Positions 16,029 through 19,463 of a stretch of DNA of 64,000 bases are shown piece by piece. This stretch comes from an uncultured Erysipelotrichaceae bacterium (GTDB lineage Bacteria; Bacillota_I; Bacilli_A; Erysipelotrichales; Erysipelotrichaceae): assembly GCA_900315065.1 (NCBI GenBank), contig OMXQ01000006.1:7100-71099 (forward strand), written 5' to 3'. Position 1 is the stretch's first letter. Each line of letters opens with the position of its first letter. Below the pieces are notes generated by a model. It worked only from the letters and a program-made list of their open reading frames with translations, was not told the origin of the DNA and made no database searches. The position numbers were made by a program, and so were the translations under genes.

Positions 16029-16250
16029 TCATATGTTCTTCTCCTTTCTGCCTGCAGATAAAAAGCCGGGACTTTCGCTCCGGCTTTCAATCTCATTTAT
16101 TCTGTTTTCGTATTCATCGATGGCTCTGAATTGTGCCAGTTCCAGCATCATTTGCTGATTCAGCTGCAAAAGCTCTGCCGATAAGTCTGCATAAAACGCC
16201 GCAATCGTTATCCAATAGCTATTCGCCTGTTTCTTCGGATTCCGGATCAT
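16029..16250 (-). CDS. Small coiled-coil hypothetical phage protein (start uncertain)
   Basis: LLQLNQQMMLELAQFRAIDEYENRINEIE fills the gap between XkdX-like gene and endolysin. Confidence 0.4.
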   Translation of the reverse strand: MIRNPKKQANSYWITIAAFYADLSAELLQLNQQMMLELAQFRAIDEYENRINEIESRSESPGFLSAGRKEKNI

Positions 16251-16377
16251 TGTACGGCTTGCCTGTGATTTCTTCGTACTGTTCCGGTGTGATCCATGCG
16301 TTAGGTTCTACTGCGGCGCGTAATGATTCGTCATTCAGCCGGCCAGCGTTGTAAAGTCTTTTCAATCTTTCAAACAT
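16219..16377 (-). CDS. XkdX family protein (52 aa), not in the ORF track
   Basis: MFERLKRLYNAGRL...WITPEQYEEITGKPY translated by hand; TGATG coupling with upstream gene. Confidence 0.8.
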   Translation of the reverse strand: MFERLKRLYNAGRLNDESLRAAVEPNAWITPEQYEEITGKPYNDPESEETGE

Positions 16378-16646
16378 CAGAATAACCCTCCCATAAGAAT
16401 TGATACGGTCAAGTCGTCGATTGCTTCGTTCATTTCGGCCATTTCAGCTTTGTGCTGCAGCTGGTACTCCGTGATTGTGATTTCCCGGCTTTCGCATACC
16501 CATTCGGTATATGCTTCCGTGCCGGCGTCTTCATCAGCGTCGTGTACCACCGACCGGATATTCCGGCGCTGAATTAAAAAGCCGTCCGCGATCGCTTCGA
16601 CCTCAGCCGGCTGCTGTGAGCAGTGTTCCTCTTTCCATTCTGTCAT
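16377..16646 (-). CDS. Small tail-associated protein (XkdW-like position), 89 aa
   Basis: MTEWKEEHCSQ...AIDDLTVSILMGGLF; precedes XkdX; start overlaps the RT 3' end. Confidence 0.6.
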   Translation of the reverse strand: MTEWKEEHCSQQPAEVEAIADGFLIQRRNIRSVVHDADEDAGTEAYTEWVCESREITITEYQLQHKAEMAEMNEAIDDLTVSILMGGLF

Positions 16647-17757: not shown

Positions 17758-17882
17758 ACAGTGATTTCTTTCTATCCTCTACCGGAGCGCAGGTGCGACC
17801 GCTTTACGTCCGGCCCTGTATCGAGTTTATTTCCACTCATCTTTCCAATAATGGCGAGTAAACGGCGTTTCAGCCGTCAGTG

Positions 17883-18087
17883 GTGTAGGATATCGAGCCG
17901 CATTTAATAGATTTCAAGATAGAAAATAGGGCGCCGCGCCATTGTTCCAGTTCGTATTGCCGGCCGTATTGTTCCAATTGCGAGCACGCGGCCCGCCATT
18001 TGCACCATTGTTGCAATTAGCAAAGCGAAGACAGACCGCCGACAGGCGGACAAGAACCCACTACGGCACGGCCCGATACCCCTACAC
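17883..18087 (-). ncRNA. Putative DGR template RNA core (TR enclosed by complementary flanks)
   Basis: GTGTAGGGGTATCGGGCCGT (18087-18068) pairs with GCGGCTCGATATCCTACAC (17901-17883) on the - strand. Confidence 0.6.
17929..18041 (-). repeat. DGR template repeat (TR), 113 bp
   Basis: Aligns without gaps to 18192-18304; 25 coding-strand adenines in 11 AAY, 2 ACG and 1 GCA codons. Confidence 0.97.
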
Positions 18088-18124
18088 AAATATTCAATTT
18101 TTAAAAATCCAACATTCCAGTGAC

Positions 18125-18172
18125 AAGGGGGAGAGCCCCCTTTGAACCCCCCGATGCGTCACGCTGTGACGC
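18125..18172. other. Two hairpins downstream of VR (candidate DGR homing cruciform elements)
   Basis: GCGTCAC-3nt-GTGACGC (18156-18172, overlaps target stop) and AAGGGGG-4nt-CCCCCTT (18125-18142). Confidence 0.7.
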
Positions 18173-19463
18173 CTACAGGTGGAAGAAGAACGGGCGCCGC
18201 GCCAAAGATCCAGGCCGCATTGCCGGCCGCAACGCTCCAATCGCGAGCACGCGGCCCGCCAGAAGCACCAAAGGCGCAATTAGCAAAGCGAAGACAGACC
18301 GCCGTGATGGTATTCTGATTTTCCGACGTATACGTACCGTCGCACGATGCCAGGGAAGTGCTTCCACGTCCGCCGTTAATTACCGGCACGCTTCCGTATC
18401 CTGGTATTGTTTTGAAAATGTGCGCATATTTCCACCCACTTGTCGGCGTTACTCCATCCGGAAAAACATCGATACCCGTATCAACATACGAAGCGCCGGT
18501 CGGATCATAGTTGTAATTCAGTCCTACCTTTACACGGCCGTTTACAATCACTTCGTACGGATCGCGCATATACTGATTCTGCGTGATCGGCACAATACTG
18601 TGGAAAACCTTATTCAGGGACTTATTGTCATTTGTTCCATAAAACATTCCCCCATTTACTACGGCATTAACCAGCATACCGTGCGTAGCCGTATCCGAAC
18701 TGTCGTACCCGTTCATATTACCATGACCGTATGCGCCCTGTAAGCCTGAAGTTTTTGCAAACATCATCAGAAGATCGATCAGTGTTTCCATAAGCCCGCC
18801 GCCAAGAAAATGTGCACGGCTTGAGAAGTTCTTAATATAAGTGTTCTGCGTTGCTGTGTTATGCGACATATCAGTCAGCAACCCGGAGATTGATTTCAGC
18901 TTGGAATCAACCAAGGCGCCGTAAAACATCGGAAGCCATACGCCTTCCAGCTCGTTGCCGTCCGGATCGATAAATCCGACTGCTGTAAATCCGGGCCTTT
19001 TTTCGAACGAAAACATAACATACCGGTCATTTCCCTGCATTACCTCGCGCTTATAAATTTTCGTGATCCAGGAAAAAGCGCCGCCGTCATATTCTGTATT
19101 CGCTACGTCGGAATTTCCACCGGCTGCCTTCTTTGAATAGTCGTTTTCATTCAGCTGATAATCTGGCACGCCATTACTGTGAACCATCCACGGCTTGCAG
19201 GCCGTGATCAGTGGGAAAGCCGCCCAGCTGTTAAGCTCGCACGTACCGGTCGAAAGATCCACGCTCAGCGGTGTATATGCGGCATTTACGCCGATATACT
19301 CAATGCGCTGCGCCGGTGCCAGAGTTTCGCAGTGCTCAATGAATCCATAAATGCCGTTAATTTCCGGAATGCCCAATCCGCTGCGAATGCCGCGCAGCTG
19401 TTCGATGAGTTCGTCCATCTGGTCATGATCCGGAAGCGGTAATTCTTTAATCAATTCTGCCAT
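18159..19463 (-). CDS. DGR target protein; putative receptor-binding/tail protein with C-terminal variable (CLec-like) region
   Basis: VR lies in its last ~50 codons; located after BppU in the tail module; CLec fold inferred from known DGR targets. Confidence 0.88.
   Translation of the reverse strand: MAELIKELPLPDHDQMDELIEQLRGIRSGLGIPEINGIYGFIEHCETLAPAQRIEYIGVNAAYTPLSVDLSTGTCELNSWAAFPLITACKPWMVHSNGVPDYQLNENDYSKKAAGGNSDVANTEYDGGAFSWITKIYKREVMQGNDRYVMFSFEKRPGFTAVGFIDPDGNELEGVWLPMFYGALVDSKLKSISGLLTDMSHNTATQNTYIKNFSSRAHFLGGGLMETLIDLLMMFAKTSGLQGAYGHGNMNGYDSSDTATHGMLVNAVVNGGMFYGTNDNKSLNKVFHSIVPITQNQYMRDPYEVIVNGRVKVGLNYNYDPTGASYVDTGIDVFPDGVTPTSGWKYAHIFKTIPGYGSVPVINGGRGSTSLASCDGTYTSENQNTITAVCLRFANCAFGASGGPRARDWSVAAGNAAWIFGAAPVLLPPVGVTA
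18192..18304 (-). repeat. DGR variable repeat (VR), 113 bp
   Basis: 18 mismatches to TR, all at TR adenines; 0 mismatches at 88 non-A positions. Confidence 0.97.

Follow-up and report, generated by a model that had tools for sequence, protein, structure and literature searches.

The long-range stem that loops out the entire TR of a DGR in the window (the 64,000-nucleotide stretch of DNA analysed here) is most probably, at roughly 80%, the clamp duplex of the DGR template RNA, that is, the functional counterpart of the avd:Sp duplex that forms the core of the cPRT Stop in phage BPP-1. Comparison of related loci confirms the stem, by sequence evidence, as a functional RNA element kept by compensatory mutations. 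Taken alone, it is a further, lineage-specific example of a published DGR element and not a new kind of element; what is new is that the clamp persists without Avd, that the Rfam RT-4 RNA is part of a larger DGR RNA, and that this RNA contains a second, covarying pairing, X:X', which forms a pseudoknot.

The cassette lies on the minus strand within a prophage tail module (Table 1), with TR positioned 263 nt downstream of VR. All 18 differences between TR and VR inside the 113-bp repeat fall at TR adenines, and the best solved relative of the RT is the bRT of BPP-1 (8ub7, E 6.8e-14), group II intron RTs ranking behind; with a bRT-like RT, repeat differences at adenines only, and a VR that ends the target gene, the locus is a DGR. 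The G5...C5 core of the hairpin that follows VR is conserved at the same place in relatives, and the hairpin corresponds to the GC-rich inverted repeat after the IMH of BPP-1 (PMC12875486, PMC5758913). The RT gene is overlapped at its 3' end by an acidic 89-aa ORF, downstream of which lie an XkdX gene, a holin, and an amidase.

Table 1. Genes, repeats, and RNA elements of the DGR cassette, listed in the direction of the minus strand; coordinates are those of the window.
Feature	Coordinates	Strand	Basis and remarks
DGR target gene, 434-aa phage tail protein	18159..19463	-	ORF; phrog_5302 tail protein, E 7e-74
VR, 3' end of DGR target gene	~18304-18192	-	VR/TR repeat
Post-VR hairpin AAGGGGG CUCU CCCCCUU	18125..18142	-	7-bp stem, 4-nt loop; after target-gene stop codon
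Candidate sigma-70-type promoter	18098..18126	-	TTGTCA (18126-18121), 17 nt, TAAAAA (18103-18098); unproven
5' arm of stem	18068..18087	-	conserved, covarying core 18082-18068 (AGGGG plus variable stretch)
TR	17929..18041	-	113 bp; VR/TR repeat comparison
X, TR 3' flank UUUUCUAUC	17918..17926	-	beyond VR homology; complementary to X'
AAA(U) directly 5' of 3' arm	17902..17905	-	conserved, consensus AAA[U]GC; alignments
3' arm of stem	17883..17901	-	conserved core 17901-17887
Rfam RT-4 RNA (RF03025)	17770..17887	-	126.3 bits against gathering score 73.5; model positions 1-118 of 118
X', spacer 3' tail GAUAGAAAG	17768..17776	-	ends 10 nt before RT start codon
DGR reverse transcriptase, 384 aa	16603..17757	-	RVT_1 E 1.3e-18; phrog_1423
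89-aa ORF, phrog_20201	16377-16646	-	no Pfam match; overlaps RT 3' end by ~40 nt
XkdX-family gene	16219-16377	-	directly after 89-aa ORF

The TR-enclosing stem and its conservation

The first-pass annotation had described a long-range stem looping out the whole TR, and this stem was recovered exactly where it had been placed, with 19 pairs formed on the minus strand between 18087-18068 and 17901-17883, three of them G-U, and one bulged G. From the base inward, GUGUAGG (18087-18081) pairs with CCUACAC (17889-17883), one G of the GG at 18080-18079 forms a G-U pair with U17890 and the other is bulged, UAUCG (18078-18074) pairs with CGAUA (17895-17891), and GGCCGU (18073-18068) pairs with GCGGCU (17901-17896), two of these last pairs being G-U. 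The stem is present in the MFE fold of 17870-18100 and in that of the whole 338-nt RNA, in which its outer pairs reach probabilities of 0.85-0.99. Judged from the window alone, the flank-to-flank duplex is better than 991 of 1000 shuffles, and the fold of the whole region has a z-score of only -1.94, which makes the single sequence moderately unusual.

Relatives were gathered through the RT protein (79 viral and 68 genomic loci), with a further 76 added by a motif scan. Among 30 distinct close relatives, with RT identities of 51-60%, pairing across the 14 core pairs stands at 92%, and 10 of these pairs carry double compensatory changes; the covariation score of 0.668 compares with 0.225 for shuffled data, none of 500 shuffles being as good, and slid-partner controls reach at most 0.16. 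The larger set of 41 sequences adds classes with RTs that are 29-36% identical, together with the cultured phage FP_Epona, in all of which the same helix is formed by different sequences. Here the share of paired cells is 91.5%, 11 of the 14 pairs carry compensatory changes, and the covariation score is 0.714 as against 0.214 after shuffling (again 0 of 500 as good), counts in which related sequences do not represent independent events. RNAalifold predicts the TR-enclosing helix unaided. Covariation across related DGRs, which had been named beforehand as a check on the stem, is thus strong.

The conserved helix is shorter than the one drawn from the window, and in some classes it contains internal mismatches. 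The outer four pairs, formed by GUGU (18087-18084) and ACAC, occur in 1, 4, 1, and 10 of 30 sequences, and this extension is private to the window; GUGUAGG:CCUACAC as a conserved helix was accordingly rejected for its outer four pairs, leaving AGG:CCU as the conserved part, which is invariant. The ACAC in question (17886-17883) is the 5' strand of helix P1 of RT-4. Because the stem base (G15-G17) is invariant, its pairing is unproven by this approach. Further inward, G18079-U17890 is a G-U pair in 33 of the 41 sequences, and since such a near-invariant pair would read as an A-C mismatch in the opposite strand, the structure acts as RNA of the TR sense strand.

Relation to the BPP-1 cPRT Stop, RT-4, and the absence of Avd

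By cryo-EM of BPP-1 (Handa, Biswas, Chakraborty, Ghosh, Paul, and Ghosh; PDB 8ub7 series), avd369-379, the last avd codons, were found to pair with spacer nucleotides Sp59-70 in a duplex that marks the end of cDNA synthesis, hence the name "cPRT Stop" (bioRxiv 10.1101/2023.10.23.563531). A survey limited to Avd-bearing DGRs predicted similar duplexes, averaging 13 bp, in 207 of 278, and its authors predicted a wide spread of the element (bioRxiv 10.1101/2023.10.23.563531). The stem described here shares both position and geometry with the BPP-1 element, being a duplex of the 11-15 bp class formed by a strand upstream of TR and the spacer downstream of it, looping out the whole TR and adjoining a structured spacer, which in BPP-1 binds the RT; it is this agreement that argues for its identification as the cPRT Stop counterpart.

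The two RNAs are not alike in every respect. The 5' strand is the end of avd in BPP-1, whereas here it is intergenic, because the lineage lacks avd. The earlier suggestion that the fold might replace the avd-derived 5' element is borne out in that an intergenic strand takes the place of that element; however, the result is the same known element and not a new fold. The 2-bp UNCG stem-loop of BPP-1, followed by A-minor adenosines beside the duplex, is not recognisable here, where the 3' arm is followed by CCUACACC and then by P1 and the P2 hairpin of RT-4. In BPP-1 the primer strand pairs with the TR 3' end and is followed after 2 nt by the stop strand, in nested arrangement, whereas in the present RNA it is the 3' end of the spacer that pairs with the TR 3' flank, as a pseudoknot. 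The conserved AAA(U) before the 3' arm stands at the position of the BPP-1 primer A56-G57-C58, but in alignments of relatives no consistent complement of AAA(U)GC was found in the TR 3' end. A nested primer strand of the BPP-1 type between TR and the 3' arm was rejected, as the local hairpins there (UUAUUC/GAAUAA and CUGGUU/AACCAG, with AUUUU/GAAAU in the window) shift register between relatives and yield no consistent pairing. A likeness may also be drawn to the msr-msd RNA of retrons, in which the a1/a2 inverted repeats enclose the template and place the priming nucleotide beside it for cis-primed reverse transcription, a conserved G that adjoins the a1/a2 stem serving there for priming; retrons, however, belong to another RT clade and have no VR, homing, or adenine mutagenesis.

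In the model proposed here, the clamp joins the intergenic 5' strand at 18082-18068, which consists of AGGGG and ~10 variable nt, to the opening nucleotides of the spacer between TR and RT (17901-17887); it would thereby loop out the 113-nt TR and set it against the structured RT-4 spacer, presumably the dock of the RT. By analogy with BPP-1, the clamp would be needed for cis-primed reverse transcription and could serve as a physical stop that ends the cDNA just upstream of TR, such that only TR would be copied. The stop and priming roles, like the identity of the priming nucleotide, are extrapolated from one phage whose RT needs Avd, and the absence of Avd here counts against them. Moreover, compensatory mutations in the BPP-1 duplex failed to restore activity (bioRxiv 10.1101/2023.10.23.563531), so pairing alone may not define its function.

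A six-frame search of the 2.52-Mb genome for Avd (PF05635) yielded no match at E<=1, nor was any found in the complete 48-kb genomes of three related phages that carry the same cassette; the ORFs neighbouring the DGR likewise gave no Avd match, and no avd lies between VR and TR. As far as these searches reach, the lineage would seem to work without Avd, although a very divergent Avd may yet exist. Avd is present in ~74% of DGRs and is not obligatory, DGRs devoid of accessory genes being known (Architecture A, with a core of TR and RT, and Lineage 3; Wu et al., 2018, PMC5758913). The same survey inferred that an Avd-independent mechanism must exist, without saying how it would operate (PMC5758913). 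The present cassette resembles these DGRs in its layout of target gene with VR, TR, and RT, in having no avd, HRDC, MSL, or CH1 gene, and in its setting within a prophage tail module of Firmicutes type. Unlike the present analysis, the 2018 survey covered genes and repeats and not RNA structure (Wu et al., 2018, PMC5758913), and although Avd-less DGRs were known (PMC5758913), their RNA was hitherto undescribed. Only ~16 nt separate X from the 3' arm, where BPP-1 carries a 31-nt Avd-binding stem-loop; no room is left for such a structure, which is consistent with the lack of Avd.

The 89-aa ORF was considered as an Avd substitute and rejected, as its product is strongly acidic (~24 D/E versus 6 K/R), whereas Avd is basic, and as it precedes XkdX in the manner of small tail-module proteins; a DGR accessory role for this protein is unlikely. 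The ORF and the XkdX gene are conserved directly 3' of the RT gene in 47 and 38 related loci, respectively, and in FP_Epona, and they are probably tail-module genes that the DGR has split from the tail fibre.

The spacer itself is filled by the RT-4 match, which directly abuts the 3' arm and ends 12 nt upstream of the RT start. The RT-4 motif was found upstream of RT genes and was assigned no role, only RT-10 being tied to a DGR, with speculation on the other motifs (Weinberg et al., 2017, PMC5737381). The segment 17887-17770 is a full-length member of the family, likewise upstream of an RT gene, and the RT-4 helices covary in the alignment of relatives. In its layout, a junction is followed by two hairpins, a single-stranded stretch rich in A, and a long hairpin that contains internal loops, an order that may resemble that of the stop stem-loop, the thumb ring, and the bRT-binding stem-loop in BPP-1. 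The Rfam model begins with UACAC and ends with GAUAGAA, both unpaired, whereas in the window its first nucleotides run on into the TR-enclosing helix and its last ones are paired with the flank 3' of TR. RT-4 is therefore no more than the central portion of a ~320-nt DGR RNA that extends from ~18087 to 17768. The proposal of a template RNA self-contained within the stem was thus not upheld, as the conserved RNA runs ~120 nt further 3', through RT-4, to the tail that pairs with the TR 3' flank.

A second pairing between the TR flank and the spacer tail

X:X' comprises 9 bp, including one G-U, with a possible further pair G17777-U17917, and since it crosses the clamp it creates a pseudoknot. The nucleotide just 5' of X, A17927, is unpaired, and an A occupies that place in most of the 41 relatives. 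RT-4 ends in an invariant GAUAGAA, to which a likewise invariant UUCUAUC just past the TR/VR homology is exactly complementary. Within close relatives both X and X' are nearly unvarying, and in other classes the two sides change together: UCUUAUC(A) occurs with (U)GAUAAGA, UUCUUAUC with GAUAAGAA, UCUUGUC with GAUAAGA, GACUUAU with AUAAGUC, UUCUCU with AGAGAA, and CUAUCC with GGAUAG. At least six contiguous pairs can be formed in 40 of the 41 sequences. In RT-18 elements the rule also holds, though by strands unrelated in sequence to these, with UUACUAA(A/U) opposite (U/A)UUAGUAA beside the RT AUG. Column-based counting was dropped for this pairing, as MAFFT misaligns the region (by 4 columns for the window and by 1 for the UUCUUAUC class), and X:X' was assessed by register-free tests of cognate against non-cognate partners; permuted partners were as good as cognate ones in 0 of 20000 trials by energy and in 0 of 5000 by helix length. 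For distant DGRs only local helices were used, as RNAduplex overfits on their long flanks and its z-scores there are meaningless. The X side is weakened in L021 (UUAUAUC) and in L023 and L028 (CUCUACUC), in all of which the GAUAGAA tail is unchanged.

Some variation in the pairing of this region was also observed. The spacer tail at 17763-17783 on the minus strand reads UAGAGGAUAGAAAG, and its repeated UAGA/AUAGA would allow pairing with the TR flank in two registers, either UUUUCUAUC with GAUAGAAAG or CUAUUUUCUA with UAGAGGAUAG (10 bp, two of them G-U). Some relatives carry a local copy of GAUAGA, which pairs with the UCUAUC of the TR flank, and an adjacent A-run pairs with a U-run. Local hairpins compete with X:X' and the clamp in L014 and L080; the hairpin of L080, ~14 bp long, competes with X:X' and with the start of the clamp 3' arm, and hairpins of this type may represent an alternative (off-state) conformation.

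X follows directly upon the GC-rich end of TR (GGCGCGGCGCCC, 17940-17929), where cDNA starts in BPP-1, which makes X:X' the best candidate for the template:primer duplex, although by this analogy the assignment falls somewhat short of even odds and the BPP-1 primer strand sits elsewhere than X'. The X' strand would, on this proposal, supply the priming adenosine, and the cDNA would start at the unpaired A17927 after the GC-rich TR end. It is possible, if on balance doubtful, that the Avd-less DGRs of the RT-4, RT-4-like, and RT-18 types have a differently wired template RNA, in which X' primes and cDNA is made from A17927, and that this architecture explains their function without Avd. If so, a pseudoknotted RNA, and not a missing protein, would explain how ~1/4 of DGRs work without Avd, and the placement of X' beside the RT start codon could couple translation of the RT to RNP assembly in cis.

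That placement also allows another reading, whereby the clamp, and especially X:X', would mainly regulate translation or transcription of the RT, outside reverse transcription. X' ends 10 nt before the RT AUG, in the GAUAAGAA, AAUAAGUC, and RT-18 classes it borders on the start region or overlaps it, and brt of BPP-1 is likewise without a clear ribosome-binding site (PMC12875486). However, most close relatives have a separate AGGAG ribosome-binding site, with X' located ~30 nt upstream of it, the clamp is at least 130 nt from the RT start, and X is located exactly at the TR/VR homology boundary, the expected site of cDNA initiation, so that expression control as the main role appears improbable; for X:X' by itself a part in RT translation is a serious alternative to priming, and roles in translation control and in reverse transcription are not mutually exclusive. 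A further alternative, also judged improbable, is that the duplex is an RNase III-type processing site, which like the stems of 16S and 23S rRNA would excise or stabilise the TR RNA from a late tail-operon transcript. It does bracket a functional RNA, the lack of a terminator-like site from the target gene to TR makes a long precursor plausible, and 19 bp are reached in the window. Yet the conserved helix is just 14-15 bp, short for RNase III and mismatched in some classes, cleavage would part TR from the RT-4 spacer and the X' tail, and the equivalent duplex of BPP-1 acts uncut inside the RNP (bioRxiv 10.1101/2023.10.23.563531).

A chance inverted repeat, or an element acting as DNA (a cruciform or a recombination site) without an RNA role, would accord with the modest fold z-score of the single sequence and with the restriction of the outer 4 bp to the window. 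This explanation is nevertheless extremely improbable, given compensatory changes that no shuffle equals and conserved G-U pairs that become A-C mismatches on the other strand, where no stable DNA cruciform would form; it would seem to be contradicted already by the covariation, unless the alignments were artefactual.

How selective, cis-primed reverse transcription proceeds without Avd has been a question since the 2018 survey (PMC5758913), and the sole structural model, that of BPP-1, is Avd-dependent. The present data place a TR-enclosing duplex in an Avd-less lineage common in gut Firmicutes phages, and they offer in the covarying X:X' pairing a concrete, testable candidate for the priming site, with a different placement of the primer strand. 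A minimal system of RT plus RNA would in addition be attractive for targeted-mutagenesis tools. An experimental system with the same RNA is available in FP_Epona (NC_047910), a cultured phage of Faecalibacterium prausnitzii, in which the order is the same: tail protein, TR with an RT-4-like RNA, RT, overlapping small ORF, XkdX, and lysis genes. Its clamp is formed by GGAGUGCGGCGGC with GCCGCCGCACUCU, and an X:X' pair is also present; it differs in that 32 additional nt, carrying two hairpins, are inserted between the 3' arm and CCUACACC. As the phage is cultured and a DGR has already been reconstituted in E. coli, tests by compensatory mutation are feasible.

Transcript origin and neighbouring observations

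A promoter that would start transcription just before the 5' arm had also been proposed in the first-pass annotation. The hexamers and their spacing are as stated there, an alternative spacing of 18 nt being available with AAAAAT, and the predicted start lies near 18091-18089. However, the match to consensus is weak, at 9-10 of 12 positions (TTGTCA 5/6; TAAAAA 4/6, without the conserved final T), and it has no conserved counterpart: relatives have no conserved -35/-10 at a fixed distance within their AT-rich gap of 8-60 nt, and in L029 the VR hairpin and the 5' arm are only 8 nt apart, which leaves no room for a promoter. Matches of equal quality occur in the window at 0.58 per kb per strand, which corresponds to a chance expectation of ~4% for the 70-nt gap at the window-wide rate, and a higher one in DNA of 32% GC. 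The -10-like hexamers of close relatives were considered as a conserved promoter and rejected, as they would imply transcription starts within the 5' arm. The target gene and TR are not separated by any terminator-like site, so that transcription could equally well read through from the tail operon, and a promoter for the template RNA at 18126-18098 remains a tentative assignment, with the odds leaning against it.

A convincing conserved extended -10, TGATAGAAT, was found in the distant GAUAAGA class only, ~40 nt upstream of AGGGG, and suggests a dedicated promoter for the TR RNA in that class. In this class, the conserved extended -10-like sequences (TGTGATAGAAT or TGATAAAAT) stand ~40 nt before the AGGGG 5' arm in L152, L153, L160, L162, L181, and L187. 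The TR cassette of the GAUAAGA class does not follow directly upon the VR hairpin.

Within the window, a hairpin CCGCC UGUC GGCGG (18036-18049, minus strand), the 3' half of which consists of the first TR bases, occurs in a 26-nt insert between the 5' arm and TR, where relatives have ~10 nt. It was scored as terminator-like by the scan, and its tail, UCUGUCUUCG, is not a clean U-run. Finally, L085, from a Lachnospiraceae MAG, has two tblastn matches to the target protein (9-626 and 1414-2529) upstream of one RT, which suggests either two target genes or a duplicated C-terminal domain.
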